From a virus (Duplodnaviria; Heunggongvirae; Uroviricota; Caudoviricetes), in the IMG/VR virus record IMGVR_UViG_3300031718_000177: 64,000 nucleotides of DNA. One strand, written 5' to 3'. Of the stretch, positions 2,412 through 45,307 are shown piece by piece. How positions within the stretch are numbered: position 1 is the stretch's first letter; the number at the start of each line of letters is the position of its first letter. The notes beneath the pieces are model-generated. The model was not told the DNA's origin. It saw nothing but the letters and a program-made list of their open reading frames with translations, and did no database searches. A program made the translations under genes and the position numbers.

Positions 2412-2537
2412 TTAGTTAGTTGGAGTTAGCTTCCACTGTTTTTTGGATACAGGTTTCTTACATCTGCAACATAGTTTAGGTTGGAATTGATGTCGGGCGC
2501 CACAGTGAGGACATAAAAATGTCTGGATGGATTTCAT
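2412..2537 (-). CDS. Small zinc-ribbon protein (41 aa, not in ORF track)
   Basis: Hand translation MKSIQTFLCPHCGARHQFQPKLCCRCKKPVSKKQWKLTPTN; ATGA overlap with the rfbA stop. Confidence 0.65.
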   Translation of the reverse strand: MKSIQTFLCPHCGARHQFQPKLCCRCKKPVSKKQWKLTPTN

Positions 2538-3394
2538 AATAACCCCAATAAATACTTTCCGTACTGGTTATTTTTCATTGGTTCGGCTAATTTAGCAACT
2601 TGTTCTTTGCCAATAAAGCCCATTCTAAATGCAACTTCCTCCAGACAACCAATCTTAAGACCTTGCCGGTGTTCAATAGTTTGTATAAAGTTAGACGCTT
2701 CCAACATAGCGGTCGGCGTCCCTGTATCAAACCACGCAGTACCGCGACCTAACGTAGCTACTTGTAGACGACCTTGTTCAAGATATAACTTGTTCAAGTC
2801 AGTTATCTCTATTTCACCCCTGGACGAAGGCCGGAGCGTCTTTACCAACTTAAATACATCTTTATCATACATGTACAATCCAGTAACAGCTAAACTGGAT
2901 TTGGGATTAGCGGGTTTTTCTTCGATAGAGATAATCTTATCTCCACGCACTTCCACCACCCCAAATCGTTCTGGATCGGATACATGATGTACGAAGATAT
3001 AGTTAGAGGTAGTGGTACTTCTATTACGTAATGCTCTCGCCAAGTCATGTCCATAGAAAATATTATCGCCAAGAATTAGACATGATGGATTACCATCTAC
3101 GAACTTTTCAGCTATCAAAAACGCCTGAGCAATACCGAGAGGTTCTGGCTGTTCGGCATAAGATATATTGATACCGAACTTAGAGCCATCTCCAAGTAGC
3201 TTCTCAAACAACGCTCTATTTGATGGATGTACGATAATGATTATATCTTTGATACCCGTCAGCATCAAAATAGACAACGGGTAGTATATCATTGGCTTAT
3301 CGTAGATTGGAAGTAGTTGCTTGCTGATGACGAAACTTGCAGGGTAGAGGCGGCGCGATTCGCCGGCGCTTAATATAATGCCTCTTCTATTCAT
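2534..3394 (-). CDS. rfbA: Glucose-1-phosphate thymidylyltransferase RmlA/RfbA
   Basis: GIILSAGESRRLYP, SKQLLPIYDKPMIYYPLS, EKP, RGEIEITD, LGRGTAWFDTGT. Confidence 0.96.
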   Translation of the reverse strand: MNRRGIILSAGESRRLYPASFVISKQLLPIYDKPMIYYPLSILMLTGIKDIIIIVHPSNRALFEKLLGDGSKFGINISYAEQPEPLGIAQAFLIAEKFVDGNPSCLILGDNIFYGHDLARALRNRSTTTSNYIFVHHVSDPERFGVVEVRGDKIISIEEKPANPKSSLAVTGLYMYDKDVFKLVKTLRPSSRGEIEITDLNKLYLEQGRLQVATLGRGTAWFDTGTPTAMLEASNFIQTIEHRQGLKIGCLEEVAFRMGFIGKEQVAKLAEPMKNNQYGKYLLGLL

Positions 3395-4666: not shown

Positions 4667-5326
4667 ATGCTCAATTTCAAGAAATGGCTAGAAGTCCAGA
4701 TGGCTACAAAAGGCGATGTAGGCATTGGCGGTGGTAATGGCACGGACGATAGCGGAGGCGGCAGCGAAGGTAGTGAAGGCGACAACAAATGGATAGAACT
4801 ACTTTATCAAAAAAAGAAACAAATAGATGAATGGATGCTTCAATCTTCAATATTATCTAAACTGAAAGCTCTATTAGCTGAAAAACTATTAGCAACAAGA
4901 CCAGTCGGTCCTCAAAGTCCTATAATACTACCGCGTTCTGGCTATGTATTGCTATACTGGAGATTAGTAATAAACAAAAATATATTAGATGAAATAGGTT
5001 TATTATTTAAGAAATCTGATTTATGGAAACCGTTAGGTATAACGGCAGGAGAACTTTGGTCGTTTGTAGATACCCCGCGAGTACTTCAATTTCTTCTATA
5101 TCAAACAATAGGTCAAATCTTAGACAAGGATTTAATAGAAAAAAGCGTCAACGCTAGATTGTTCGATTACCATCAAGATAACCAACAGAAGATAGCAGAA
5201 ATGCTACCAAATGCGGTATTATCCGACCCAAGATTTAGTTCAGAAGTGGGATGGGGCGGTGATGAAGGATTTAGTATATACGCAAGAGGTACTATTACTT
5301 ACAGATTAAGAAACTCTAGGAAATAG
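4667..5326 (+). CDS. Hypothetical protein with an MLNFKKWLE N-terminus (possible capsid-targeted internal protein)
   Basis: Isolated plus-strand gene, ATAAATA just upstream, N-terminal F-K-K-W-L-E motif. Confidence 0.6.
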   Translation: MLNFKKWLEVQMATKGDVGIGGGNGTDDSGGGSEGSEGDNKWIELLYQKKKQIDEWMLQSSILSKLKALLAEKLLATRPVGPQSPIILPRSGYVLLYWRLVINKNILDEIGLLFKKSDLWKPLGITAGELWSFVDTPRVLQFLLYQTIGQILDKDLIEKSVNARLFDYHQDNQQKIAEMLPNAVLSDPRFSSEVGWGGDEGFSIYARGTITYRLRNSRK

Positions 5327-6760
5327 CGGAGGTATCTTAGCTGGGACACTTAAAAGTGGTACGCCTATACTATTCCAAGTCAAAGGAAAGCCCATACTTG
5401 TGGCAATTTTAGAACAAGTGTCTGGTAGAAATGGGGAGAGAACAACAGTAAGTTCTTTGATAGAGTTCATCAATTCGTAAAGTATTTTCTTGTCTTTAGT
5501 TTCCCAAGGTTTTGTCTCATTCACGAATTCATTACATTTATCTACAAAATCAAAGATAAGGACAAGAGCTTTATCTAACTCGAAGTTCATTACATTCAGA
5601 TTAATAGTTTGTATATCAAATTGACGGGAAAGTCGGTAGTCGTTAGATGTTTCTAACCCTATTTTCGCAGCAAGCGTAGTTGACCTACTTATCAAATTAC
5701 CTAATTTATTAGCGAGTTCTTTATTCAGATGTTCAACTAGCAAATCTTCCGAATAGGTAGCATCGTGAAAAATAGGACGACGCAATAAAGAATATCGCAC
5801 AGCATCAGTACCATATTTATCGATCAACTCAAATGGGTCAATTATGTTGCCATTACTTTTACTAATCTTTTCTCCGTGCTGATTGAGATAGCCGTGAATG
5901 ACGACACGTTTCGGCAATGGATAATCAGCAGCCAATAGCATCGCTGGCCAAACTGCCGTGTGAAACCAATTTATTCCCTTACCAATTAAATGCGTGCCTG
6001 GAAAATATCCAGCACAAGATTCACAATCACTACCCGTCAAATAGCTCAAAAGGGCATCAAACCAGACATAGATAGTTTGCTCGGGAAGGCCGAAACCATC
6101 TATGCCAATCGGAGAAGATATTCCCCAACCCGAATAAGGTCGAGAAACACAAACATCAATCAGAGGCCCGGATTTAATACGTTCTACAACTTCGTTAGCT
6201 CTAAACTTAGGGAAGACACGATATTCTAGGAAGTGGAGCAATTCGTCTCTATATTTATCTATCTTGAAAAAATAGCATTCTTCACTTAGAGTTTTTGGTG
6301 TTGTCTTATGTTCGGGACAACCACCATTTATCAATTCCTTAGATGTAATAAAACTTTCGCATCCTTCGCAATAGAAACCTTTGTAAGTTCCTTTCGTAAT
6401 TTCGCCCTTGTTGTATAATTTACGGAAGATATCCTGAACTACTTGTTTATGAACTGGGTCGGTTGTTCTTATGAACTTGTCGTAGGAAATATTTAGACAC
6501 TTACATAAAGCGATAAATGCCGAGGCGTTGCGGTCTACCAGTTCGCGTACAGGGCAATGTTCTTGTAGGGCGGTACTATAGTTCTTTTGTGCATTCTCAT
6601 CGGTGCCAGTTAGAAAACGCACATCGTAGCCGCGCAATCTGTGCCATCTAGCAACCACGTCGGCAACAACCTTCTCAAACGCATGTCCTATATGTGGACG
6701 TGCATTCACATAATCCATTGCCGTTGTAATGTAGTACTTGTTGTCGTACTCAGTGTCCAT
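5306..6760 (-). CDS. metG: Methionyl-tRNA synthetase (short form, no C-terminal Trbp domain)
   Basis: YYITTAMDYVNARPHIGH, FLTGTDE, FIRTTD, Zn knuckle CEGC..CPEH, YVWFDAL, IGKGINWFH, KISKS, DAVRYSLL, NKLGNLISR. Confidence 0.95.
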   Translation of the reverse strand: MDTEYDNKYYITTAMDYVNARPHIGHAFEKVVADVVARWHRLRGYDVRFLTGTDENAQKNYSTALQEHCPVRELVDRNASAFIALCKCLNISYDKFIRTTDPVHKQVVQDIFRKLYNKGEITKGTYKGFYCEGCESFITSKELINGGCPEHKTTPKTLSEECYFFKIDKYRDELLHFLEYRVFPKFRANEVVERIKSGPLIDVCVSRPYSGWGISSPIGIDGFGLPEQTIYVWFDALLSYLTGSDCESCAGYFPGTHLIGKGINWFHTAVWPAMLLAADYPLPKRVVIHGYLNQHGEKISKSNGNIIDPFELIDKYGTDAVRYSLLRRPIFHDATYSEDLLVEHLNKELANKLGNLISRSTTLAAKIGLETSNDYRLSRQFDIQTINLNVMNFELDKALVLIFDFVDKCNEFVNETKPWETKDKKILYELMNSIKELTVVLSPFLPDTCSKIATSMGFPLTWNSIGVPLLSVPAKIPPLFPRVS

Positions 6761-6911
6761 GTTGGTCGTCGGTTGGAAGACGCTTGACAATCCTAACGTT
6801 TTGGCCAAACAACAATCCCCGCCAGTTGAAGACGCCTATTATTATAGCCGCAATGATCCAAGAGCCGAAAACAAAGTACCAGCCGGGGTTTTCGTTGAAG
6901 TATTGAATCAT
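6750..6911 (-). CDS. Small membrane protein
   Basis: MIQYFNENPGWYFVFGSWIIAAIIIGVFNW has one TM helix; the start lies downstream of the terminator at 6932-6969. Confidence 0.5.
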   Translation of the reverse strand: MIQYFNENPGWYFVFGSWIIAAIIIGVFNWRGLLFGQNVRIVKRLPTDDQHGH

Positions 6912-10761: not shown

Positions 10762-11877
10762 TCATCGGTCGAACAGATTACGCAAAATTATCTTCTTAGA
10801 ATTACGCCATTCTTTCTCCAAGAACTCTTCATTTTGGTTATCACCATACTGGTCTCGGAGAGTAAAAAGTATGCTTGCAAACTTAGTTTTAGATATTACT
10901 GTTTGAGCAAACTCTTTACGAGTGGGCATTTGCCAATATTGACGCCAAGTGTCGCATAATTGCTTGTATGCTTCGACTACTATTTGTTTATTTTTGGCAT
11001 AATCTTCCTTGACCTCTGGAAAAATGGCCAACATTTCTTCGTCTTCTCCAAACATAAAATCAATTTGGTACTTGGGATTGAATAAATTACCAGATTCTCC
11101 TTTCATCGCATGGTAGGTAAGGTAGATAGGATTTTTCACTTTCCATCGTCGGTTTTGTTTGTCCCTAATAACTATACCTTCATACGTAGCGTCTTCATTA
11201 GCAACACTATCAATGTGGTCATGCACTTCGTCTATATTTCGGAAATGATAACTCTTGGGTCGGAGCATCTTATATGCTTTGTTCCTAACGATGTAATCAC
11301 ACTCAAAAGATGTAAGCTCCTCATAGCCCCTAAACGCACTTAGGAGATAAACTGCTGGCTCTTTATATGAACGGACAATTTTGTTATATGGAGATACTAA
11401 CTCAAAAACATAGGTAAGTTGTGGGTCTAGATTTATCGCATCAATTTTACAACCGATAGCAATCTCAAAGATTTCAGCCCAAGTATAAGGAGAGAATTGC
11501 AATTTATCCGTAGCGAATGAGCCACGAGTACTGACCATCCACTTATTATTGAAGTTATATAATAGGAAAAGCGAGCCGTCTTCCTTAGATTGAGCTTCAC
11601 AATGATGCCAGTTGAATAGTTCCATCTCTTCGGGATACTCACCGACGTTGAAAAACCGCTCGAAAGCTCTGGCGACTAATTCTTTTGTCCGCGAATGAAG
11701 TGTTAACGCCCTACATTCCCTTACAATAGGATGATTACGCGGCTTACTCTCAATAGTGTCATAGTTAAGAATAGCGAGAGGCAGTTCAGGATGCATACGT
11801 ATATTAAGAGCGAACTCTTTTTCAAGAGTAGCTAAACTATTGCCAGGAGTGTTTAAGTACTTTTGGACTTCAAACAT
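10762..11877 (-). CDS. T4 Rnl1-like RNA ligase
   Basis: RAFERFFNVGE, KEDGSL motif I, STRGS, TYVFELVSPYNKIV, EGIVI, WKVKNPIY. Confidence 0.9.
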   Translation of the reverse strand: MFEVQKYLNTPGNSLATLEKEFALNIRMHPELPLAILNYDTIESKPRNHPIVRECRALTLHSRTKELVARAFERFFNVGEYPEEMELFNWHHCEAQSKEDGSLFLLYNFNNKWMVSTRGSFATDKLQFSPYTWAEIFEIAIGCKIDAINLDPQLTYVFELVSPYNKIVRSYKEPAVYLLSAFRGYEELTSFECDYIVRNKAYKMLRPKSYHFRNIDEVHDHIDSVANEDATYEGIVIRDKQNRRWKVKNPIYLTYHAMKGESGNLFNPKYQIDFMFGEDEEMLAIFPEVKEDYAKNKQIVVEAYKQLCDTWRQYWQMPTRKEFAQTVISKTKFASILFTLRDQYGDNQNEEFLEKEWRNSKKIILRNLFDR

Positions 11878-26068: not shown

Positions 26069-26261
26069 TTCTTATGAAAAACAAACATTGACCGAGATTT
26101 TTATATTCTAGCCGTAAATCATCTGATTTTTCGCTTACTTGATCGCCGTTAGACCAAATAACTTCGTAAGTGAAAGTGTATAAAGAAGAAACTACTCCAA
26201 TTCCCTTAGTATAATCCGATTTATGGGATACTATGTTGCCAATTTTAAGTTCCACAATCAT
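26055..26261 (-). CDS. Small SH3-like protein
   Basis: [20 protein letters not shown]. Confidence 0.55.
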
Positions 26262-27589
26262 GCCGCTTTCGGATTTGATGCTTCGCGTTTTTTAAGTTCT
26301 TGCCAAAGATGCTCTGAGTAAAAACTCTTGTTTCCTTTTACATGCTCAGCAGTAATCTCAAACACTTTTTGTTCAGTATGATCTGGTAGCGAATATTTAA
26401 GGTCAAGCATCAACCTTTCTATAATCTTCCGCAATGCCCTCGCTCCCGTTTCACTCTTTTTGAGACTTTTCTTATCATCTTCGCCACCCTTGGCTTCAAC
26501 GGCTATTGCTTCGATAGCATCATCGGCGAATTTTAAGACATGTCCATATTTAGCAAACATCCTTTGCTGCTGTTTAATGAGTGAATTCTTTGGTTCAGTA
26601 AGTATATGCTTAAGATCTGAAACCGAAAGTTCATCTAAGGTTGCCACCATAGGTAGCCGACCTACGAACTCAGGAATTAAACCATAGTGTATCAAATCCT
26701 CGTCAGTAACTTCGTGTAATAGTTCATTACGTTCTTTATCTTCATCTATAACAGCTACTTGGTTAAACCCCATTCCTCCTTTACCCAATCTTTGTTTTAT
26801 GATATCTTCAATGCCAACGAAAGCACCACCACAGATAAATAAGATATTAGTGGTATCTACCGGTATATAACTTTGTTCAGGATGTTTACGTCCGCCGTGA
26901 GGTGGAACATTACAAATAGTGCCTTCTAGCATCTTAAGTAAACTTTGCTGTACGCCTTCGCCACTTACGTCGCGAGTAATACTGACATTAGCGCTAGTTT
27001 TATGAATCTTATCAATTTCATCAATATAAAGTATGCCCCTCTGTGCTAAATCTATATCGCCTTCTGCTGCCCGAATTAAACGTAAAAGCAAATTTTCCAC
27101 ATCTTCGCCAACATAACCGGCTTCTGTAATTGAAGTAGCATCTCCGATAGCAAAAGGTACGCCCATCATTTTAGCAAGGGTCTTTACAAGCAGTGTCTTG
27201 CCACTACCGCTAGGACCGAGCAATAACACATTGGACTTTTCAATTATCGTATCATCAAGATCATCGCTGGTATCATTGATGCGAATATAGTGGTCATGAA
27301 CGGCAATAGCAAGAATCTTTTTTGACATTTTTTGCCCGATAACATAACGATCCAGATGCTCAACAATTCTTGCTGGCGTCGGAACTTCGATACTGCCTTT
27401 AACTTTTCTATCGATCATCTCCTTCATTACCGCCCTAGCTGATTTATGTGCTAGGTCTAAGCATGGCCAACAAACATAAACTCCATCTTTACCGCCTTGA
27501 GCAAATGGTAGATTTTTCTTTGTTCTAGGTTGTTTACAAAAACTGCAAAATATTGCGTTATCTTCCTTACCATTTTTCTCTCTTGCCAT
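26258..27589 (-). CDS. clpX: ATP-dependent Clp protease ATP-binding subunit ClpX
   Basis: CSFC..CWPC Zn domain, [43 protein letters not shown] loop, TGARALR. Confidence 0.96.
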
Positions 27590-27625: not shown

Positions 27626-28405
27626 CTACGACAGAAGTTGCTGATTTTCAAGATGTTTCAGAGATTTGCCCCATCTCTGCCTCAGATAAGTATGATTAAG
27701 AGCGAACGTTTCTTCAAGTTTATGGCTTTTTTCTTCGTGAACTGCTTTAATCGTTTTATTGCCATAGTGTTCTACTAAGTCAAGGTGTAGAGCATAAATC
27801 TTATAACCAGCTTCCTTCAACCTTAATGAAAAATCCGCATCCTCAGCGTAAGCAAACTTTAAGTTGATACTGTCAAACAAACCGTATTTCTCATACAAGT
27901 TTCGCTTAAAGCACATGCACCATCCAGGTATAAAATCTATTTGTTCTCCATACGCTATATCGCGACCTTCTAGATTGGCATTAAATAAACTGCCCATATA
28001 TCCTACTTGGGCATATTCAGGATTAGCTTCAATAAAAGCTATCATCGCTCTATCCCATTGCTGATAAACTTTGGTATCTGAGTTAAGTAAAATTATGTAT
28101 TGGCTTTCCCCCATCAAAGCCAGCGTGTTATTAGGTTCTATGAAACCGCGATTGATTTCAGACCTTACAATTTTAGCATCTTTTAATGACCCAATATAAT
28201 CTTGAGTAGCTTCATCAGAAGCATTATCGTAAATTAAAAGTTGATAATTGATGGTATTTTGCTTAATGGATTCTACGCACGCTTTTAAGTAATCAAGTTG
28301 GTTATGTGCAACAATAAGGATATCCTTAGATAGATTATCCTTCATTTCTACGGCTAATTGCCACTCTGCGATAATTTCATCGTGATACTGTTCTAATTTG
28401 TTCAC
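27626..28405 (-). CDS. Glycosyltransferase family 2
   Basis: IVAHNQ, YDNAS, NRGF, ILLNSD, YAEDADFSLR, HYG. Confidence 0.92.
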   Translation of the reverse strand: MNKLEQYHDEIIAEWQLAVEMKDNLSKDILIVAHNQLDYLKACVESIKQNTINYQLLIYDNASDEATQDYIGSLKDAKIVRSEINRGFIEPNNTLALMGESQYIILLNSDTKVYQQWDRAMIAFIEANPEYAQVGYMGSLFNANLEGRDIAYGEQIDFIPGWCMCFKRNLYEKYGLFDSINLKFAYAEDADFSLRLKEAGYKIYALHLDLVEHYGNKTIKAVHEEKSHKLEETFALNHTYLRQRWGKSLKHLENQQLLS

Positions 28406-28608
28406 GCATTAGACGAGTAACTGCGAGCAAGTTTTCTGAGATATTCACCTATTGGATAAGGCCGAATGCCTGGCTTCAATACATTCAATACATAAACATA
28501 CGCCAATCCTTCGTCGTCAGCAATTTGCGTTTCTATTTCGGGTTCTAACCGTTCGCCGGTTGAACGAGCATGCACATAAAGTAATTCTAATTGGCGACGG
28601 GTGAACAT
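28402..28608 (-). CDS. Paralog family member 1 (Q-x-x-L-L-x-x-H-A..R/Q-x-x-E-x-E)
   Basis: MFTRRQLELLYVHARSTGERLEPEIE. Confidence 0.65.
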   Translation of the reverse strand: MFTRRQLELLYVHARSTGERLEPEIETQIADDEGLAYVYVLNVLKPGIRPYPIGEYLRKLARSYSSNA

Positions 28609-28793
28609 TTTATACCTTCGTTTGATTGCGAATAAAAGAATCGGTCGGTCTTAAGAACTGACTTCCTAAGACAATAATAGAAAAACCTAGCTGACCGATT
28701 TTCGACAACCTGTTTCTTTACATCGGGCTCTAATTGTTTGCCAGTGACAACAGCGTGATAACAAAGTAGCTCCAGTTGTTTGGTTGTAAACAT
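28587..28793 (-). CDS. Paralog family member 2
   Basis: MFTTKQLELLCYHAVVTGKQLEPDVK. Confidence 0.65.
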   Translation of the reverse strand: MFTTKQLELLCYHAVVTGKQLEPDVKKQVVENRSARFFYYCLRKSVLKTDRFFYSQSNEGIKCSPVAN

Positions 28794-28794
28794 C

Positions 28795-29997
28795 TTATAC
28801 CTTCGTTAAAGGGAACATCCCTAAATCTAGCATACATTTCCCAAGTATCTCGTGTGTGTAGCGTATCGCATATATAAAAGCCAAACGACCGCCACGGATT
28901 TGTTCAGTATGATATGCGTTGCCCAACATACGGGCTAGATTATGAGCATACGAAGCTACACTCACAGGGTCAAATTGTTCGGTAGCACGATTACGCCAAT
29001 ACGGATAATAGCACGCGTATCCCAAAAGATTGTAATCTATTTCGTGAAAATATCGCTCTGTCAATATGGTATGATGGCGAACATTCTCAACGCCGAAAAA
29101 TGGAACACTTGATAACGCAGACGCAATACGAGCATATGTGTATGTAATGTACAATCCGGCTTGTTCGGGCTTCGTCCATTCTTCTACATTAAAGGAAACA
29201 TTTTGGCTACGAACTACGTGTAAAAAGTTCCAAGCCAGAATGTTCCATGCTAGTTTTTTTGGCTCCGGCGTTTCATCCAAACGATCTATTACCATCCGAA
29301 TAGCATCGGTAGCCAAAAGAGCATTTCCATCGCGACTTTTGATTTTCTTTTTCGTAACAGGGTCTAAAACCAAACCCATGCTTAAATGTTTGTCGCCTAG
29401 ATTTAGTTTCTGAAAATGCTCTTGCTGTTCTGCTCCGGTTAAATAATGTGTGGGAGCGACAATTTGTGCGAAAGCAAGATCGTGGTAAGCGTAGGTAGTT
29501 TTACCATCACTTTTACGTATAACTTCTGGCCCTTTGGGGCCTTTCCAAACTAGACAATCTTTATAATCACCTTCACCTTTTTCACAAATTAGAACTGCTT
29601 TGTCAGACATTTCCAAGTCGGTATAAATCTCTGGCTTATATCCGACAAAATCAAGCCATTCATATAAAGATTTCTCTGCTTCTGGCGAGATACCCAAACT
29701 ATGTCCTAGCATAGATACAAAACGACTATTCTTGAAAAGGACTTGTAAAGATTTCGCCAACGCCAAATTACGCAGGTGTCCTACATGCAGATGTTTATTG
29801 AGATTGGGCGAGAAAGCATCAACTACATATTTTGGGGCATCAGGATAGTCAAGCGGCCATTTCCAGCAATTTTCATTTACATGATAGTTGTGGAATCGTC
29901 CCTCTGCCTTATAGGTATAGTCCGCCATCTGTGGCAATGGCGTCATAGAAACGAAGCCAACGCCGAAATTATCTGGAATCGGGCGAATTGTTGTCAT
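28795..29997 (-). CDS. argS: Minimal arginyl-tRNA synthetase
   Basis: DAFSPNLNKHLHVGHLRN, RKSDGKTTYAYHDLA, GAEQQEHF, KKIKSRDG, GLYITYTYARIAS, DALR-like C-terminus. Confidence 0.85.
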   Translation of the reverse strand: MTTIRPIPDNFGVGFVSMTPLPQMADYTYKAEGRFHNYHVNENCWKWPLDYPDAPKYVVDAFSPNLNKHLHVGHLRNLALAKSLQVLFKNSRFVSMLGHSLGISPEAEKSLYEWLDFVGYKPEIYTDLEMSDKAVLICEKGEGDYKDCLVWKGPKGPEVIRKSDGKTTYAYHDLAFAQIVAPTHYLTGAEQQEHFQKLNLGDKHLSMGLVLDPVTKKKIKSRDGNALLATDAIRMVIDRLDETPEPKKLAWNILAWNFLHVVRSQNVSFNVEEWTKPEQAGLYITYTYARIASALSSVPFFGVENVRHHTILTERYFHEIDYNLLGYACYYPYWRNRATEQFDPVSVASYAHNLARMLGNAYHTEQIRGGRLAFIYAIRYTHEILGKCMLDLGMFPLTKV

Positions 29998-30298
29998 CGA
30001 ACGACACTTTCCCTTCATAGAGTATTACTTTATAGTACAGCGGAGGACCAGTGATGGCTTCATAGAGTTTGTTTTTAGCATCTGCCCAATTCTGATCGAT
30101 ATAAGCGGAGTCACGTTGACACTTTAGACAACAATAAACATATCTTATTAAGTACCACCAACAAAAGCAGTGCGATGAATGTTGTCGAGAACGGAATGCG
30201 CTTGTATATAAGGCAGGTTCAATTTCGGGTACACGTTGTTTCATCTCAATGGCGTGTTTCGCTAATATTCCTACTTGATAGCATGTAAAGTCATTCAT
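29969..30298 (-). CDS. Paralog family member 3
   Basis: FTCYQVGILAKHAIEMKQRVPEIE. Confidence 0.65.
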   Translation of the reverse strand: MNDFTCYQVGILAKHAIEMKQRVPEIEPALYTSAFRSRQHSSHCFCWWYLIRYVYCCLKCQRDSAYIDQNWADAKNKLYEAITGPPLYYKVILYEGKVSFDDNNSPDSR

Positions 30299-30662
30299 TA
30301 ATCATCACAGTGGAGAAAAAACGGTTATTGTGGAATAATGAAGTTCCTACGAATAGCGGCGGTCCCTCCGCTAACTTCCTTAGATATTTGCGAGCATATT
30401 GAAGCATGTAATAATATCCGAGCGAAGGAGGGCGAGGTACTTTCAGAACGTCATAAACATAAAAACTGACTTGATCGTCGTAATTTAGAAGAGCTACTTC
30501 AATATTCGGAGTTCTTTCTTTGATTAAATCTATTAGATATCTACGATATCTACCAATCCTATATGAGAATATTGTATGTTCAATTTCTGGTATACGCTGT
30601 TTTGTTTCGATAGCGTGAGTAACTAGCAGGCATAATTGAGAATGATTAAACTTGCTGTTCAT
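30291..30662 (-). CDS. Paralog family member 4
   Basis: FNHSQLCLLVTHAIETKQRIPEIE..ARKYLRKLAEGP. Confidence 0.65.
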   Translation of the reverse strand: MNSKFNHSQLCLLVTHAIETKQRIPEIEHTIFSYRIGRYRRYLIDLIKERTPNIEVALLNYDDQVSFYVYDVLKVPRPPSLGYYYMLQYARKYLRKLAEGPPLFVGTSLFHNNRFFSTVMINE

Positions 30663-30951
30663 TTGATTCTTCTATCAGCTTTCTAAGATATTCTCTTGCT
30701 TGTTGGTCTAGTAATATTCTTTCGTCCAGACTTATGTACCACCATGTTCCATTACCTTTTGCGATGACAATACTCCCGTCAAAGGCTACTTTTCCTTTAC
30801 CGTCATAAACAAACATTTCATGTCCACAAACCCCCACGACGTATTGGATACAGAAGTTACTCTTAACTACGTAGGATTCAATCTCCAGTATTCGCTTCTT
30901 TGTTGCGAGAGCGTGTTTCAATAGCATCTCTGATTGTGTTTCGTTAAACAT
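30646..30951 (-). CDS. Paralog family member 5
   Basis: MFNETQSEMLLKHALATKKRILEIE..AREYLRKL. Confidence 0.65.
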   Translation of the reverse strand: MFNETQSEMLLKHALATKKRILEIESYVVKSNFCIQYVVGVCGHEMFVYDGKGKVAFDGSIVIAKGNGTWWYISLDERILLDQQAREYLRKLIEESNEQQV

Positions 30952-35438: not shown

Positions 35439-35738
35439 ATGAACACATTAACAGATAACACCCCCTCAAAAACAGGAAAATTACAACTAACGACCTACCA
35501 GGATGAAGTTACAGTTGATACCGGTAATCAAGAAATTACTGTCAATCTTCCTGGGAAACCCCTTAGAGTATGGTTTTCACTTGGCGATGATTGCTGTCCC
35601 CCTGTCTGTCAAGGTAACGTAGATAAGGCGGGCGCCACCTTACTGGATAATGGGTTCGTTATCTACGCAGAAATTACTTCTACGATGCGTATAATCAAAT
35701 GGTTTGCTATCATGGAAGCAGATAATGGATTAATGTAA
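35439..35738 (+). CDS. Beta-sandwich protein, paralog B (start could be 35379)
   Basis: GNQEITVNLPGKPLRVW..PVCQGNVDKAG. Confidence 0.7.
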   Translation: MNTLTDNTPSKTGKLQLTTYQDEVTVDTGNQEITVNLPGKPLRVWFSLGDDCCPPVCQGNVDKAGATLLDNGFVIYAEITSTMRIIKWFAIMEADNGLM

Positions 35739-36641
35739 TTTCTGCTTGAGCATATCTTGAAGCTTCTTCACATCAAAAGACCAATAAGAGATAGCATCTG
35801 TCCCGTTAGGAATAGTTTTAAGGAAATTTATTGATTTAGAATGATGGGTAATATCAATAAAAGGAATGCCAAAAGAATAACTGAAAATAATTGAATGTAA
35901 CCTTGTACTAATTATCACATCCACAGCAGCCAATACATCTATTGTATTTTGGACATCTAGTTTGTCAAAAATTACTAGGTTTTTTGTCCAGAACTTACAT
36001 TTTGCAGCAACCCAAGAATTAGCAATACGATCATCGATTGGGAATTGTTGTCCAAATGGTATAAATATAAAACTAGCCGATGTATCGTCTATGACTCTGG
36101 CAAGTTCATAAGCAAAATTATTAAAGCGAGCGACATCTCGTGCTAATCCATCTTGTCCAGCGTGTAGAAGATATGAATTTATTATTATAGCCACCTTTTT
36201 TTGATACAAATCAAGACCTTCAGTAGCAAACTTACTGATTAACCACTCGCGTCCCTTCTGGGCGTCTGCTTTCAACAAAAAAGCCAAATCAGGCATGAAG
36301 GAAACCTTATGACCTTGCTTGACTAATTGTTCCTTACTCGATAAATCTCTGACATAAATATGTCTAAAAACGTTAGGCACTATCATGCCTTCTTCTACCC
36401 CCACAGAAATCGCAAAAATGGGTTTATCCACCTTCGTAGCTTTCTCCAATTCCTTAAAGAAATACGGCTTTAAGACGTTCCCACCACCAAGTATTACAGC
36501 ATCATATTTCGCGACATCAGTTGGATTGATTTTATCAACAAAAGTCAGTTCGTGTTCAGGGAAAACGATAGGGAAGGATAACCGGTAACTCTCGTCACCA
36601 ATATTAAAGTGCCCATAAAACCCTAGTATGAGTAATTTCAT
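35730..36641 (-). CDS. Polysaccharide pyruvyl transferase family protein
   Basis: GFYGHFNIGD, LGGGNVL, YVRD, PDLAF, STRLHS. Confidence 0.9.
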   Translation of the reverse strand: MKLLILGFYGHFNIGDESYRLSFPIVFPEHELTFVDKINPTDVAKYDAVILGGGNVLKPYFFKELEKATKVDKPIFAISVGVEEGMIVPNVFRHIYVRDLSSKEQLVKQGHKVSFMPDLAFLLKADAQKGREWLISKFATEGLDLYQKKVAIIINSYLLHAGQDGLARDVARFNNFAYELARVIDDTSASFIFIPFGQQFPIDDRIANSWVAAKCKFWTKNLVIFDKLDVQNTIDVLAAVDVIISTRLHSIIFSYSFGIPFIDITHHSKSINFLKTIPNGTDAISYWSFDVKKLQDMLKQKLH

Positions 36642-36701
36642 GTAGAATATATACGAAAAAATAAACACACTTCATTCACTAAATACTCGTAGGAATTCAA
36701 T

Positions 36702-37988
36702 ATGTACCTTTCTGTAAACAATGATGGGGTCATTAAATCTATTTCTGCTCACCCGCTTGCGGTTACATCTGCGCAAACCATTAAAACACCAGAAATAACC
36801 GAGCAAAATAAGAAGGACTTCTTAGGTAAGCGTGTATTACTCGGAGAGCGCAAACCATTAAGTAAAATCGCTTATGTATGTAACTGGGCAGAACATTGTG
36901 GCATTTCGAGTTATAGCCAAGCGTTGATTTCACATATACAGAAAATTGTTCCAAATGTTAAAATCTTCAGCGAAATTGTACCTAATCCGCCCGACGAAGC
37001 GAACGTTGTTTATAGCTGGCAACGTGGCAACAGTATGATTGAAACCATAGAAAACGTTCTGGCTTGGCAACCAGATATTGTACATATACAACATGAATTC
37101 GGCATTTTCCCTAAAGCCACGCATTTCTTGAAAATGCTAGAGATGCTGGATAGCACACCTTATGCTGTTACCACCCATAGTGTGTATGAACATTTAGATA
37201 AAACTATATGCACTTCATGTATCAAAAATATCATCGCACACTCAGACGAATGCAAAAAGCTTCTACTAAGGTTGGGACATTTAAATACAATTCATGTTGT
37301 AAAACACGGATGTTTGGTATATCCCGATACTACTGAACTTTGGAATATATTCCAAACTGAATATGCTATCATACAATTTGGTTTTGGCTTCAATTACAAA
37401 GGAGTTGATATGGCTATCGATGCCATTGCTTACTTGAAAAAGGATGAAAAGTTTAAGAACATTTTTTACTGTTACCTTTGCAGCGAAAACGAATATACTT
37501 ATAGCATTCATTCGGAATACTATTCTTACTTAAAGAAGAAGGTACTAGAAAGTCATCTGCAAGAAAATGTTGTCATTCTTCGTGGATTTCTGTCGGAAAA
37601 AGTAATTAGCAATTTTTTAAGAACAGCAAGATTGGCAATTTTCCCCTATAAAACCGATCCTAATAACTGTGTTTATGGTGCGTCTGGCGCTATCCGACAT
37701 GCGATGGCCAATGGTGTTCCCGTTATCGCAAGTGATTCGCATCTATTCGATGATTTAGAAGGTATTGTACCAAGGACAAATAACTACTTAACGCTGGCGT
37801 TAGAAATTGATAAAATCTTTAGTAACCAAAATTATAAGCAGAAATTAGTGCAAAAGAACCTGAGGTTCGTGCAAGATAACAATTGGGATGTTATCGCACA
37901 AACTCATATTGATGTTTACAATAACATTATCACAGAACATGAAAAAAAATCTGTGCGCATCCAAGATTTTGAGTTGATTCCGAGTTGA
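36702..37988 (+). CDS. Glycosyltransferase family 4 (GT-B)
   Basis: CGISSYS, HIQHEFGIF, FGFGFNYKG, SGAIRHAMANGVPVIAS, NNWDVIA. Confidence 0.9.
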   Translation: MYLSVNNDGVIKSISAHPLAVTSAQTIKTPEITEQNKKDFLGKRVLLGERKPLSKIAYVCNWAEHCGISSYSQALISHIQKIVPNVKIFSEIVPNPPDEANVVYSWQRGNSMIETIENVLAWQPDIVHIQHEFGIFPKATHFLKMLEMLDSTPYAVTTHSVYEHLDKTICTSCIKNIIAHSDECKKLLLRLGHLNTIHVVKHGCLVYPDTTELWNIFQTEYAIIQFGFGFNYKGVDMAIDAIAYLKKDEKFKNIFYCYLCSENEYTYSIHSEYYSYLKKKVLESHLQENVVILRGFLSEKVISNFLRTARLAIFPYKTDPNNCVYGASGAIRHAMANGVPVIASDSHLFDDLEGIVPRTNNYLTLALEIDKIFSNQNYKQKLVQKNLRFVQDNNWDVIAQTHIDVYNNIITEHEKKSVRIQDFELIPS

Positions 37989-38045
37989 CAGCAAGATATT
38001 ATTGATATATATAGTTGAGGTAACTTTCAGAGGAGAAATGTCAAT

Positions 38046-38453
38046 ATGAAAACTTTAGTTTTTGCGTTTGCAACGGTTATTCTTGCTTTTAGTCTTATGA
38101 CTACCGACGCCTTTGCTCGTGGTGGCGGAGGTCGTGGTGGTGGAGGCGGCGGTCGTGGCGGTGGCGGCTTTAGTCGAGGCGGCGGCGGTCGCGGTTTCAG
38201 TAGAGGGGGCGGCTTTAATAGGGGCGGTCGCGGCTTTGATAGAGGCGGTCGGGGATTCAACAGAGGTTGGTACAACAGAGGTTGGTATCCTTGGGGTTGG
38301 TACTATCCTTATTACAATCCTTACTATTATCCTTATTACGGTTACGGCGGATATGGTGGCTATGGTGGCTACGACGATAGCAGCAATTATGGCTATACTT
38401 GCCCTTACGGGTATTACTACTACAACGGATATTGTTACCCTTACCAATACTAG
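38046..38453 (+). CDS. Signal-peptide Gly/Arg-rich, Tyr-rich protein 1
   Basis: GAGGAG RBS; signal peptide ..AFA; GG-F-x-RGG repeats; Y/P/G-rich tail. Confidence 0.75.
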   Translation: MKTLVFAFATVILAFSLMTTDAFARGGGGRGGGGGGRGGGGFSRGGGGRGFSRGGGFNRGGRGFDRGGRGFNRGWYNRGWYPWGWYYPYYNPYYYPYYGYGGYGGYGGYDDSSNYGYTCPYGYYYYNGYCYPYQY

Positions 38454-38469
38454 CATCGACCTTTTCAAC

Positions 38470-38508
38470 AAAACACTCGGTAGAATTCATTTTCTCCGAG
38501 TGTTTTTT
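38470..38508 (+). terminator. Rho-independent terminator
   Basis: AAAACACTCGG..CCGAGTGTTTT inverted repeat with a T tract. Confidence 0.75.
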
Positions 38509-38518
38509 GTTTCATCTC

Positions 38519-38547
38519 TTGACAAGTCGAAACAATCTCGCTACGCT
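38519..38547 (+). promoter_or_regulatory. Sigma70-like promoter
   Basis: TTGACA-17 nt-TACGCT upstream of 38581. Confidence 0.55.
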
Positions 38548-38580
38548 GAGACATCTTGCAACAAGAAAAAAGGAAAATCA

Positions 38581-39042
38581 ATGAAATCTTTAATTTTTAC
38601 GTTTGTGACTGTTATTGCTTTAATTTTTAGTCCTACTGACACTTTTGGTCGCGGTCGAGGAGGTGGCGGCGGTCGAGGCGGCGGCGGTTTTAGTCGTGGT
38701 GGTGGCGGTTTTAGTCGTGGTGGTGGTGGATTTAATAGAGGCGGCGGCTTTAATCGTGGTGGCGGCTTTAATAGAGGCGGCTTTAATCGTGGCGGCGGCT
38801 TTAATAGAGGCGGTAGAGGCAATTGGGGAGCATGGGAAAGGGATGGCGGTAGATGGCGTCGAAGCTTTGGCGGTTACTACTACTGGTATACTCCTTACTA
38901 CTGGCCTTACAATTACACTCCTGATGGCTACTACATTTATCAAGGATGGCTTTATCCTCGCTGTCCAGATGGATACACTTATAACGCTGAAAATGGAACT
39001 TGCGATCCCGTGGTTATAGATGACGGATATCAAGGCTACTAA
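38581..39042 (+). CDS. Signal-peptide Gly/Arg-rich, Tyr-rich protein 2
   Basis: MKSLIFTFVTVIALIFSPTDTFG then GGFNRGG repeats; C-terminal part of track ORF 38113..39042; AAGGA RBS. Confidence 0.75.
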   Translation: MKSLIFTFVTVIALIFSPTDTFGRGRGGGGGRGGGGFSRGGGGFSRGGGGFNRGGGFNRGGGFNRGGFNRGGGFNRGGRGNWGAWERDGGRWRRSFGGYYYWYTPYYWPYNYTPDGYYIYQGWLYPRCPDGYTYNAENGTCDPVVIDDGYQGY

Positions 39043-39045
39043 ACG

Positions 39046-39723
39046 ATGATGCCGTTAGAGAAAAAACGCCTAGTAGAGTTATTACAAGGCTCTACTCGAC
39101 GTGGTGCTTTTGAGTTATCGTCCGGTAAAACATCCGAATACTACTTGGATTGTCGGCAAGTAACTTTGAATCCGGATGGATTGGGCATAATTTGTAACCA
39201 TATCTGGGACGAAATATGTCGTATGAAAGGAAAGTTCAACGTAAATGCAGTAGGCGGCCCGGCGATAGGTTGTATTCCCATAGTATCCGCTCTGGTAAAT
39301 AAAAGCTCATCGGTCACTGGCTACATGTATCTTAAAGGTTTCTTTGTTCGCGATGTAATTAAAAATCATGGACTACAGAAGAAAATAGAGGGATTGGTAA
39401 AATCTGGCGATAGGGTAATCATCATAGATGATGTAATTACAAGTGGTAAAAGTGCTCTGGAAGCCGCAAAAGCAGTTATGGAATTAGGATGCGAAGTAAA
39501 CAGTATAATATGCGTGGTGGATAGGTTGGAAGGAGCAAAAGACTTATTTAATGAAAATATGATACCTTTTCACCCGATGCTTACAATAGAGGATTTAGGG
39601 ATATTTGAGGTAGATAAACAAAGTTCCAAAGAGGATGACAAACAGCAATCTGCGGACGAAGTAATTAATTGCTCTCATTTAGTACATGACGCAGGATGGC
39701 GAAAGAATGTTTTTGACAAATAG
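39046..39723 (+). CDS. pyrE: Orotate phosphoribosyltransferase
   Basis: FELSSGKTSEYYLD, VGGPAIG, KNHG, VIIIDDVITSGKS, VVDR. Confidence 0.93.
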   Translation: MMPLEKKRLVELLQGSTRRGAFELSSGKTSEYYLDCRQVTLNPDGLGIICNHIWDEICRMKGKFNVNAVGGPAIGCIPIVSALVNKSSSVTGYMYLKGFFVRDVIKNHGLQKKIEGLVKSGDRVIIIDDVITSGKSALEAAKAVMELGCEVNSIICVVDRLEGAKDLFNENMIPFHPMLTIEDLGIFEVDKQSSKEDDKQQSADEVINCSHLVHDAGWRKNVFDK

Positions 39724-39737
39724 AAAGAAGTATTATT

Positions 39738-40100
39738 ATGCTTGTATGTCAAAGGCCCGATATTGTGGGCAAGATGTTAGTCAAACGAAAGTTTAGTGAT
39801 TTACAGTGTGGACTTTTTACAAATAATCATACACCAGGACTGATGGATGTACTTGATTATTATGAGATAAGTGATAATCAAATCGTCGCTCTATCTGGAC
39901 CAAAATGGGAAATTGACGTTACGCCACGCGGCTGGTATGCGGAACACCCCGAAGTAACATTTTCTGGGCAATCACAAGCCTTCGGATATGCTATCTTTAG
40001 GGGCAAGACATTATTATGGTCTGAACGATTCACATTTGAGTGTGTGAAAGAGATATTTGGTTGGACGTTAGACCTGACTCCTACAATTAAAATGGATTAG
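39738..40100 (+). CDS. Hypothetical protein
   Basis: Packed ORF. Confidence 0.55.
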   Translation: MLVCQRPDIVGKMLVKRKFSDLQCGLFTNNHTPGLMDVLDYYEISDNQIVALSGPKWEIDVTPRGWYAEHPEVTFSGQSQAFGYAIFRGKTLLWSERFTFECVKEIFGWTLDLTPTIKMD

Positions 40101-40903
40101 CTAGCAATAAAAGCTAGTCCATCGCTTCCCATAACTTTTATTGGTTTCGGCAACTTTTCTAAACATTGCTCAATTGTTCTATATCTGTCGCACATTTCAT
40201 CTTTTGTATAGATATATTTACAATCTAAGATGGCTCTGTGGAATTGGTATCCATAGACATTACTGCCGTGAAATGTGTAAACATAATGAAATGTATCCTT
40301 TATAGTCGATACCCGATATGACTTATTTAATTCTATGGCAAAATCTACATCTTCTGAAAGGTTCTTAGCCGAATAAAATGATGGAGTGTTAAGATATACT
40401 CCATCTTTCTTTTTATAGAACATCACCGAATTAGTTAAAAATGTTCTCCAATATTCATCTGGCTCTACGCTCCAATCAATACCATAAACCTCACCTATGT
40501 CGGCAAAATATTTTAGATGCGATGTATAATAACAGCCGGTTGTATCATTCCTTATGATTGAGTTGTATTGGGTTGAGAGACGGGCTCCTAGTGAAACGTC
40601 ATCATCATCAAATTGGCAAACTAGGTGGTTGGCAGTCCTCCCTCCAATTACCTCCATGCATGCCTGCCTACGTGCTGCTCCCAGCGTAATCGAGGGGTCC
40701 ACGCGGACAAGTGTGATATCTTTTCTACCCAATTCTTGAATATATTTCTCAATTTGTTCGTTAACTAGTTCGTCACTTTGCGAAGCAATTAGTAGGTTTT
40801 TATTAGTATAGGTTTGGGCGATATAGGAAGGTATGCTATATTTTTTGAGCATATCTAGTCTGTTTTTAGTTACCGTGTAGCAACTTATTGGGTAAGTTTC
40901 CAT
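40097..40903 (-). CDS. Glycosyltransferase family 2
   Basis: SCYTVTKNR, TLGAAR, CQFDDDD, SED; paralog of the next gene. Confidence 0.85.
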   Translation of the reverse strand: METYPISCYTVTKNRLDMLKKYSIPSYIAQTYTNKNLLIASQSDELVNEQIEKYIQELGRKDITLVRVDPSITLGAARRQACMEVIGGRTANHLVCQFDDDDVSLGARLSTQYNSIIRNDTTGCYYTSHLKYFADIGEVYGIDWSVEPDEYWRTFLTNSVMFYKKKDGVYLNTPSFYSAKNLSEDVDFAIELNKSYRVSTIKDTFHYVYTFHGSNVYGYQFHRAILDCKYIYTKDEMCDRYRTIEQCLEKLPKPIKVMGSDGLAFIAS

Positions 40904-41712
40904 ATAAACGCAAGCCCTTCTTTGCCCATCACATTGATTTCATCGCCTAATTTTAATTGATTTAACGAACTACATATTAGTTCTTGATGGTCTAAAATAT
41001 CGGCAATTGATAAACTATTATTTATAGATAGCCATCTATGATGTTGCATATCAAATGTATTAGAATGTTTATGTTGCGACCCATGAAAAGTGTAAACCTG
41101 CATATGCCCTAGATTAGAAGCTTTGGCTATCTTTAATCCGTTATACACATAATCATGCCATAATTGGTTTACCAAGATGACATCTTCCCCTGCTTTCGCG
41201 TGAGAACCTGTCTCAGGATATTTGTAAATATCATTTTTATACATCATGATGGTTCCTGGAATCCAATCGTAGCGATCCAATCCTTTGTAATTCCACTTCT
41301 CCCAAAACAACTCTTTTGTATCCCAATAATAATGTAATTGTTCGGATAGGAAACAAGCAAATGAACCAGTTTTTAGTAAAATAGCCAATTGGGCAGCTAA
41401 GCGACTCGCCGTGCTCAAATCATCATCGTCCCATTGAACTACAATATCGCCAGTAGCTTTTTCTATTGAATAATTACGAACTTCCCCTAATGTACATTGT
41501 TTGTCTAGCGGAAAGAACTTTACGTTGTCCATATCCTTAACATATTCAGCAATTTGATGTTTAGCCGGACCTTCGCAAACTATCACCAGTTCTTTGTTAT
41601 TGTAGATTTGGCTTAGAAAGCATTGGATTGAACGGTGACACAATTCGAATCGGTCGTAGGTGCAGAGACAGCAACTTATTTTAGGTAATTTTTCATTTTT
41701 ATTAGGGTACAC
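40885..41712 (-). CDS. Glycosyltransferase family 2
   Basis: ISCCLCTYDR, TLGEVRN, VQWDDDD, AGED. Confidence 0.9.
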   Translation of the reverse strand: MYPNKNEKLPKISCCLCTYDRFELCHRSIQCFLSQIYNNKELVIVCEGPAKHQIAEYVKDMDNVKFFPLDKQCTLGEVRNYSIEKATGDIVVQWDDDDLSTASRLAAQLAILLKTGSFACFLSEQLHYYWDTKELFWEKWNYKGLDRYDWIPGTIMMYKNDIYKYPETGSHAKAGEDVILVNQLWHDYVYNGLKIAKASNLGHMQVYTFHGSQHKHSNTFDMQHHRWLSINNSLSIADILDHQELICSSLNQLKLGDEINVMGKEGLAFIWKLTQ

Positions 41713-43986: not shown

Positions 43987-44333
43987 TGTTTGAGCTTTTC
44001 TGCTACAACTTTTCTCAACTCACTAACTTGTTCTTCGCCCATTTCTTCCCGAAGTTTATCTGCTATGTATTTAGTGTTTTCGTATGTTTCCAGATCTCGC
44101 TTACGTTTCTCGGCAAAATATTTATCTCTTTCATCTATCATCTGTCCTAGGTTGATAAAAGCTAGCACCAGCCAAACTATGATAGACAGACCGCTTATGC
44201 CTAGGAGGGGCATCGCAATATAGTTAGCCCACCACAAACCTCTGGGAATTGTATTGACAGCAATTCCACCAAGCATTGTGAACACGACACCTACTATAAT
44301 CAATCTTCTTGACCACCTATCGAACCAATTCAT
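43983..44333 (-). CDS. Membrane protein
   Basis: Two TM segments and a coiled-coil tail. Confidence 0.6.
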   Translation of the reverse strand: MNWFDRWSRRLIIVGVVFTMLGGIAVNTIPRGLWWANYIAMPLLGISGLSIIVWLVLAFINLGQMIDERDKYFAEKRKRDLETYENTKYIADKLREEMGEEQVSELRKVVAEKLKQ

Positions 44334-45307
44334 TTCAACAACTCCGAAATTGAACCAGTACCATTGTGAATACGGCGTATTGCCTCTGCTACCATTTCTG
44401 TAGTATCAAGAACTTGAGTTTTCTTTAAGTTATTTGTATTCAAGCGAAACGGCGGGATTGTGTCGCACACTACAATATTGGTTTCCATATTGTCGAAATA
44501 TTCATTTGCTTTGCCTACAAATAAACCGTGCGTGGCACAAATAGCAACCACTTGACCGCCATGATTCTGAACCGCTTGATACGCTTGCCACATTGTACTT
44601 CCTGTAGAAATCATGTCGTCGTAAATAATTACATTCGTTCCCTTGACGTTGCCTACGATACGACTGCCTTGGACTTTACCTTCTACACGAACTTTATCCA
44701 TAATAACTACGTCTAGTTCTGTTTTGATACGGCGACCAAAAGCATTTCTAAATCGTCTTGAACGAGGTAGTCCACCACTGTCGGGCGAGAGTACAACTAG
44801 GGGTCTATCGGTAGGTAAATTATTTGCACACCAATCGGCAAAGAGATTCTTAGATTCTAAATTGTCCGGACTCACCCTAAAACCATTCTGTATAGCCGAA
44901 AGATTGTGTGCGTCCATAGTGAGTGTTTGATCCGCTCCAATCGCCTCCATTAACCAAGCAATATATTTTGTAGTAATGGGTTCGCGGCTTTGTGTCTTGC
45001 GGTCTTGCCGGAACGAGGTATAAGGTAATACAGCAGTAATCCTCTCGGCACGGGCATCAACAAGAGAACCAATAAACCATAATAACTTAACAAACTTATC
45101 ACTGGCACTTTCGTTCTCGTCGCTGTATAAACTTTGGATAACGAAAACATCACGACCGCGAACATTGACCATCGAACGTAAATACGGCTCACCATCCTCA
45201 AAATATTTTTCATCCTTGTTTGATAACTCTAGCCCCAAATGTTTCGCTACCTTGGCGGCATACTCTTTTGTGGCATCAAGCCCGAATACAAGGAGATTAT
45301 CGGTCAT
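44330..45307 (-). CDS. prs: Ribose-phosphate pyrophosphokinase
   Basis: FEDGE, VRGRDVFVIQS, RQDRK, SPDSGG, IIYDDMISTGST, ATHGLF. Confidence 0.95.
   Translation of the reverse strand: MTDNLLVFGLDATKEYAAKVAKHLGLELSNKDEKYFEDGEPYLRSMVNVRGRDVFVIQSLYSDENESASDKFVKLLWFIGSLVDARAERITAVLPYTSFRQDRKTQSREPITTKYIAWLMEAIGADQTLTMDAHNLSAIQNGFRVSPDNLESKNLFADWCANNLPTDRPLVVLSPDSGGLPRSRRFRNAFGRRIKTELDVVIMDKVRVEGKVQGSRIVGNVKGTNVIIYDDMISTGSTMWQAYQAVQNHGGQVVAICATHGLFVGKANEYFDNMETNIVVCDTIPPFRLNTNNLKKTQVLDTTEMVAEAIRRIHNGTGSISELLK

Follow-up and report, generated by a model that had tools for sequence, protein, structure and literature searches.

Arginyl-tRNA synthetases (ArgRS) are unusual in that the tRNA is required for amino acid activation and in that its D loop, with A20, is read by a dedicated domain. 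The E. coli enzyme consists of an Add1 domain (residues 1–112), a catalytic domain (113–382) carrying the insertions Ins1 (164–221) and Ins2 (258–311), and an Add2 domain (383–577) (PMC3956977). The replacements D118A and D317A abolish measurable arginine binding of this enzyme and Y313A weakens it, and an aromatic-x-Asn motif has a role at the A20 pocket (PMC3956977); the motif is printed in that paper as 'Y84-N82', and the E. coli sequence reads F82 and N84. On the side of the tRNA, A20, C35 and A/G73 form the canonical arginine identity set (PMC9976931). Huge phages, with genomes >200 kb, carry many tRNAs and up to 15 synthetases, which are proposed to charge phage tRNAs (PMC7162821). Al-Shayeb et al. 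2020 (PMC7162821) describe these synthetases as host-related, and a domain-reduced, phage-specific ArgRS lineage is not described there. Our full-text literature search likewise returned no description of a phage-specific ArgRS lineage that is devoid of Ins1 and most of Add1. Hence, while synthetases of huge phages are already known (PMC7162821), a phage-specific lineage of reduced ArgRS appears to be undescribed.

We analyzed a 64-kb stretch of phage DNA (hereafter the window), which is part of a 292,671-bp contig and for which an initial annotation had proposed a 400-aa ArgRS encoded at 28795–29997. The underlying minus-strand ORF extends over 28795..30018 and would yield 407 aa from an ATG at 30018, and a second Met at 29997 results in a protein of 400 aa (MTTIRP...). 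We prefer the start at 29997 since a database copy of the protein (P0002) has the same start Met, the starts of relatives fall within a few residues of a conserved IRPxP, and an AAGGGA is located ~12 nt upstream. Translation from 30018 would add seven residues that are not present in relatives, and no AAGGGA-like site precedes this ATG. The proposed protein is thus real and its start the better one, and the motifs named for it (SPNLNKHLHVGH, YAYHD, EQQEHF, KIKSRDG, YTYARI and the C-terminal LGMFPLTKV) were all found in the ORF. Because the downstream neighbour begins 1 base past the stop codon and an upstream ORF overlaps the start, the gene resides within a tightly packed same-strand gene array. 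Five small ORFs of 68–123 aa flank it (window 28402–28793 and 29969–30951, minus strand); they have no family assignment and a common N-terminal pattern, M-F/N-x-x-x-Q-L-E-L-L-x-x-H-A...P-E-I/V-E. The coordinates of the gene, of its domains and motifs and of selected tRNA genes of related phages are compiled in Table 1.

Table 1. Coordinates of the mini-ArgRS gene, its domains and motifs (positions in the window) and of tRNA genes in related phages (positions in the sequence named)
Feature	Position	Strand	Remarks
mini-ArgRS CDS (400 aa)	28795..29997	minus	stop codon 28795-28797
Four-stranded beta domain, residues 1-52, proposed vestigial Add1	29842..29997	minus	AF2 strands 4-6, 14-17, 28-32, 35-39
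F35-H36-N37, aromatic-x-Asn motif	29887..29895	minus	aligned to E. coli F82-I83-N84 (A20 pocket)
Rossmann-fold catalytic domain, residues 53-225	29323..29841	minus	Ins1 deleted, Ins2 trimmed
SPNLNKHLHVGH: Asn65 (Arg-binding), Lys68 upstream of HIGH, HIGH H71-H74	29776..29811	minus	
Y169-A-Y-H-D173	29479..29493	minus	aligned to E. coli Y313 and D317 (arginine side-chain binding)
K218-I-K-S-R222, KMSKS-equivalent loop	29332..29346	minus	aligned to E. coli K378...R383
DALR/Add2 anticodon-binding helical domain, residues 226-400	28798..29322	minus	ends LGMFPLTKV
Short tRNA-Arg	L090:6975-7045, L099:9357-9427, L100:828-896		
Stop-codon / four-base-anticodon tRNAs	L091:7390-7460, L097:6736-6826, L093:1778-1874, L094:13184-13278, L100:16875-16949		

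Searches with sequence profiles relate the protein to ArgRS. Pfam tRNA-synt_1d (PF00750) matched with 27.3 bits against a cut-off of 23.3, only over residues 62–95 around the HIGH motif, and DALR_1 (PF05746) reached 21.5 bits, slightly below its cut-off of 22.3; a DALR_1 match is present in the precomputed Pfam column for many relatives. The same search gave no match to PF03485 (Add1) in the 400-aa protein. NCBIfam argS (TIGR00456) was matched with E 5.5e-20 and 71.2 bits, which is under the curated equivalog cut-off of 261.65; four related phage genomes also fall below this cut-off, and 14 of 14 control genomes pass it. We then turned to the fold, for which the initial annotation had proposed a comparison with ArgRS structures. 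An AlphaFold model calculated from 32 family members (pLDDT 93, pTM 0.92) found ArgRS 1f7u as its best Foldseek match (E 8e-17), and VIA-align placed 380–391 of its 400 residues on ArgRS structures with Z 24–29, among them yeast ArgRS 1bs2 with Z 28.9 and an rmsd of 3.2 over 384 residues. The fold scores for CysRS (Z 21–23) and MetRS were clearly lower. Given the Pfam, TIGR00456 and 1bs2 fold scores, this is not a chance match, and the best matches by both sequence and fold are ArgRS of 560–630 aa. Judged by alignment and predicted model, the protein is an ArgRS homologue, nearly every residue of which has a counterpart in these larger enzymes. Some family members are already labelled arginyl-tRNA synthetase in their source databases. 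With 400 aa, the protein is ~30% below the size of the cellular ArgRS found here and ~177 residues short of the E. coli enzyme (577 aa).

For conservation, 34 cluster representatives of the subclade of the window's protein were compared with 12 cellular ArgRS, with the E. coli sequence (from NC_000913) as reference and alignment both by profile (hhalign) and globally. As in E. coli ArgS (PDB 4oby, 5b63), we find a HIGH core, a Lys upstream of it, the Arg-binding residues, the K..SR loop and a DALR/Add2 domain, as well as an aromatic-x-Asn motif N-terminal to the core, and the folds align over 385 residues (Z 28). Residues 157–399 align to E. coli 301–576 (hhalign probability 100) and residues 28–90 to E. 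coli 74–148 (hhalign probability 97.8). The HIGH signature reads HVGH (residues 71–74), and the compensating Lys upstream of it, K68, aligns to E. coli K126. D60, N65, K68, H71, G73, H74, R76, Y169, D/E173, Q191, H194, H204, K218, S221, R222, Y283 and R290 are invariant or nearly so in the subclade, and these positions align to residues invariant in all 12 cellular ArgRS; at the position of the canonical Glu (E. coli E258), 33 of the 34 representatives have Asp or Glu. Arginine binding is assigned by the alignment to D60, N65, Y169, D173 and Q191, which correspond to E. coli D118, N123, Y313, D317 and Q341, so that D60, D173 and Y169 are the counterparts of the residues tied by mutation to arginine binding (D118, D317 and Y313). 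The initial claim that the arginine-binding residues are retained therefore holds, these counterparts being invariant or nearly so in the family. The anticodon-binding domain is nearly complete (175 residues vs 195 in E. coli). Since the canonical catalytic and arginine-binding residues are kept, the active site looks intact at the level of sequence.

The losses are equally distinct. Ins1 (E. coli 164–221) has no counterpart in the global alignment, in line with the large insertion after HIGH having been noted as absent; Ins2 is cut down to a hairpin, and several loops are missing, along with ~14 residues from the beginning of Add2. About 55 residues precede the catalytic domain, compared with 112 in E. 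coli, which bears out the short N-terminus initially described. The NxGDWG segment had also been regarded as absent, and indeed hydrophobic residues replace the Trp and the otherwise invariant Asp of GDWG, but the strand itself (NHVGDWG in E. coli) is present as SMLGHSLG and the last Gly of GDWG is kept (G163 = G98). Across the family, GDWG becomes (S/A)(M/L)LG, with D161 replaced by Met/Leu and W162 by Leu. E. coli R324 is not kept in the phage form either. The C-terminal residue is Val400, and Val or Ile is found at this place in the family at an unchanged distance from the LG motif; in cellular ArgRS it is Met in 9 and Ile in 3 of 12 sequences.

The E. coli Add1 domain (1–112) is represented in the phage form by ~52 residues without helices. 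Residues 1–52 are predicted to form four short strands without any helix, whether modelled within the full protein or as an isolated segment (pLDDT ~90). Profile alignment in the context of the whole protein places G33-R-F35-H-N37-Y on E. coli G79-P-G-F82-I-N84-I, i.e. on Add1 strands beta3/beta4, and no Add1 residue other than N84 is invariant in the canonical ArgRS sets used. Asn37 is found in 31 of 34 members of the window's subclade, with an aromatic residue at position 35 in 29 of 34; the second subclade of the family has the Asn in 21 and the aromatic residue in 23 of 25. In a MAFFT alignment, G14-F15 of the family are located in columns that are mostly Gly and Phe in cellular enzymes, near the Gly-Asp-aromatic motif of Add1. 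When residues 1–52 alone were aligned to canonical Add1, the register was unchanged at a non-significant hhalign E of 0.048 (probability 1%). Wide Foldseek and VIA searches with the AF2 model of residues 1–52 returned no significant match (best Z 2.8); T. thermophilus ArgRS 1iq0 was found at Z 2.6, and 4q2t had the highest TMq (0.52; E 6.8). On the basis of context and motif, we consider it quite probable that Add1 has lost its helices but retained the sheet that carries the A20 motif, which is the weakest link of our argument. The initial view that Add1, and with it D-loop reading, has gone is probably wrong, given a sheet with F35-H-N37 in the register of N84 and relatives whose tRNA-Arg keep A20. 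The additional idea of a non-canonical or non-tRNA acceptor is argued against by the intact anticodon-binding domain. An altered specificity, e.g. a preference for phage tRNA-Arg, is possible.

The initial annotation had also suggested inspecting tRNA-Arg genes. There is no tRNA gene in the 64-kb window, and the identity elements were read in relatives. Four related huge-phage genomes have 33–62 matches to the tRNA model each; every one of them carries a single argS-like gene, always the mini form, and no full-length argS, and a large terminase was found in two or three of the four. ARAGORN, run on the tRNA clusters read in these genomes, called 14 tRNA-Arg genes, 1 to 6 per genome, which cover all six anticodons. 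All 14 have an A directly after G18-G19 (12 by script and two with GGCGGAC loops by eye), which applies to 27 of 170 other tRNAs in the script count. Position 73 is A or G in each of the 14, and C35 is given by their anticodons. The combination of A20, C35 and A/G73 agrees with an enzyme that has kept the reading of A20 and of the anticodon. Three of the four genomes each contribute one short tRNA-Arg to the 14, of 69–71 nt and with a 3-bp D stem, in which the GGA of the D loop is kept. Relatives further have tRNAs with stop-codon anticodons (tca, cta) and ARAGORN-called four-base anticodons (taac, cttg, ggaa), which are possible suppressor or frameshift tRNAs.

A word-index search with the protein returned 246 matches, the best 120 of which are all 381–470 aa long and located on contigs of up to 693 kb. 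An exhaustive profile-free search gave 437 matches; the full-length-like ones have ~380–490 aa, and cellular ArgRS (557–657 aa) enter only from ~E 1e-11. The family comprises ~100 clusters at 50% identity with a mean column identity of 44%, and its contigs measure 340–693 kb (340–533 kb for the IMG/VR copies). Distant copies are present in two 635-kb uncultured phages of the phage collection, and the nearest ESM Atlas clusters (390–430 aa) are 96–100% Viruses, most commonly Uroviricota. In a tree calculated from 59 short forms together with 12 canonical enzymes, a branch with 99% SH-aLRT lies between both groups, and the short forms fall into two deep subclades. Going by its sequences, this is an old family of considerable size that is kept under constraint. 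Members of the second subclade (e.g. P0183-P0258; LR745206.1, LR756504.1) have ~380–490 aa and a more divergent C-terminal domain; they carry Ala at the conserved Glu/Asp position and Ser in place of R76 and may differ in activity. Two proteins are extended at the N-terminus: P0134 (1077 aa) contains a family member behind ~680 residues without Pfam match, and P0154 (573 aa) has an extension of ~120 residues.

One genome per prokaryote species (GTDB) yielded one full-length match among the matches listed. The contig concerned, 10 kb long and assigned to a Neisseriaceae MAG by binning, further carries unassigned ORFs and an intein-bearing UvrD helicase. The MAG also contains a fragment of canonical argS, and 400 other genomes sampled from its phylum gave no match at E 1e-12. 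A cellular home for the family was therefore rejected, based on the lone MAG contig, the lack of a match in the 400 sampled genomes of the phylum and the canonical argS fragment in the same MAG. The intein-interrupted UvrD-type helicase (L001:3652-6855), which adjoins the only family member in a 'cellular' MAG, supports that this contig is misbinned phage DNA. A Woesearchaeota match (L002) was likewise rejected as a short form, as it is an ordinary 557-aa ArgRS. Hence, the same-size homologues, which could have been normal cellular ArgRS, are not; the family is found almost only in huge phages and, unlike E. coli ArgS, is viral rather than cellular.

Among cellular enzymes, the HIGH region (SPN.NK.LHVGHLRN) is closest to that of the Thermus/archaeal-type ArgRS (1iq0; Woesearchaeota L002, 557 aa), which also has a Tyr-x-Asn A20 motif. 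Unlike the phage form, enzymes of this type are full length, with a complete Add1, the insertions and a C-terminal Met. Some cellular lineages tolerate a reduced or atypical N-terminal domain, as in the short ArgRS of C. jejuni (3fnr); the phage form aligns to that enzyme only from residue 40 on, to chain residues 77–528, and the C. jejuni enzyme is clearly longer. Short ArgRS clusters of 448–518 aa in the ESM Atlas belong to Campylobacterota, candidate-phyla bacteria and Elusimicrobiota, and the Campylobacterota representative (448 aa, possibly incomplete) is inside the 380–470-aa range of the phage family.

No near-identical record turned up in the phage collection when 20 kb of the window were compared with it by megablast. 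The window shares ClpX (49% identity), PRPP synthetase (52%), MetRS (36%) and other genes with a 436-kb IMG/VR contig that also encodes a mini-ArgRS (L045), and so derives from a huge phage of that lineage. Its MetRS (500 aa; window 5306–6808, minus strand) matches PF09334 with E 1.8e-87. MetRS homologues are encoded <10 kb from the mini-ArgRS in three relatives (L045, L048 and L051), which indicates a tendency of both synthetase genes to be passed on together. The ClpX-like AAA+ unfoldase of the window (26258–27589, minus strand) has an N-terminal Cys-rich segment, and its 49% identical homologue is a gene ~5 kb from the mini-ArgRS in L045. The window further encodes an RNA ligase of the T4 Rnl1 type (10762–11877, minus strand; PF09511, phrog_562), the kind used for repair of tRNAs cut by host anticodon nucleases.

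We consider it probable that the protein works as a minimal ArgRS on the tRNA-Arg of the phage and perhaps also on that of the host, its activity being predicted from the conserved residues. The Rossmann core would bind ATP and arginine through the canonical residues, the DALR domain would read C35 and its neighbour in the anticodon, and the vestigial Add1 sheet may still supply the aromatic-x-Asn pocket for A20. The most plausible substrate for making Arg-tRNA-Arg would be the tRNA-Arg set encoded by the phage, perhaps along with that of the host, and arginine decoding would thereby be sustained during infection. Speaking against a functional enzyme are the 71 bits compared with the required 261.65 and the missing Ins1, Add1 helices, GDWG Asp and Trp and C-terminal Met. 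We nevertheless give almost no credence to the reading that a cellular argS was captured and is now decaying without function: the deficit of ~177 residues relative to E. coli ArgRS would agree with it, but the same deletions are common to ~100 diverged clusters, the ORFs are intact at 380–470 aa, there is no variation in the catalytic residues, and the AF2 model reaches a pLDDT of 93. There are known examples of truncated synthetase paralogues that have acquired new roles; those of the GluQRS/YadB type have lost the anticodon-binding domain, kept the catalytic core and taken non-translational roles. The phage protein differs from them in that its anticodon-binding domain is retained almost fully. 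That it has been derived from ArgRS for another job, be it a tRNA-Arg shield or decoy against anticodon nucleases, a synthetase for another acceptor or an ArgRS-inhibitor resistance copy, is quite improbable, even though it fails the curated argS cut-off and a tRNA-repair-type RNA ligase is encoded in the same window. The ATP, arginine and KMSKS-type residues, all of which are invariant, would be superfluous in a pure binder, as would the anticodon-binding domain in an enzyme for another acceptor, and the four phage genomes have tRNA-Arg genes but no other ArgRS.

A closer alternative is an active ArgRS with shifted specificity, which would charge only or preferably phage tRNA-Arg, including the forms with a short D arm, as a private pair insulated from host control or attack. 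The reduction of Add1 to a bare sheet, the change of the C-terminal Met to Val/Ile and the loss of Ins1 would suit such an enzyme, three of the four related phages carry one tRNA-Arg of 69–71 nt with a 3-bp D stem, and phage synthetases have been suggested to charge the phage's own tRNA variants (Al-Shayeb et al., PMC7162821). However, A20, C35 and A/G73, the identity set usual in bacteria, are all present in the phage tRNA-Arg, and we saw no feature that would exclude host tRNA-Arg, which leaves this alternative unlikely, if worth bearing in mind. Most likely, the protein is a working minimal enzyme, in which the catalytic core and probably both tRNA-reading sites are kept, rather than one of loosened specificity. 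Carried further, and here we are tentative and rather doubtful, it may be the smallest natural ArgRS described, in which Ins1, the Add1 helices, GDW and the C-terminal Met are dispensable, and maybe one half of a phage-private pair that works under shutdown of, or attack on, arginine charging in the host.

A widespread natural enzyme of 380–400 residues would define the minimal parts for tRNA-dependent activation and A20 reading, and its compactness would make it a useful scaffold in structural studies and in the engineering of orthogonal synthetase/tRNA pairs. The family also shows that huge phages are not mere borrowers of host synthetases: they have kept a lineage of their own that is old and diversified, a point relevant to the independence of their translation toolkits.

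The window also encodes a sugar-1-phosphate nucleotidyltransferase, several glycosyltransferases, a polysaccharide pyruvyl transferase and the PRPP synthetase (2534–3394, 27626–28405, 35730–41712 and 44330–45307). These auxiliary metabolism genes represent a sugar-modification and nucleotide-precursor toolkit in the phage. The long ORFs of the window end in TGA in 22 cases and in TAG and TAA in 14 cases each.
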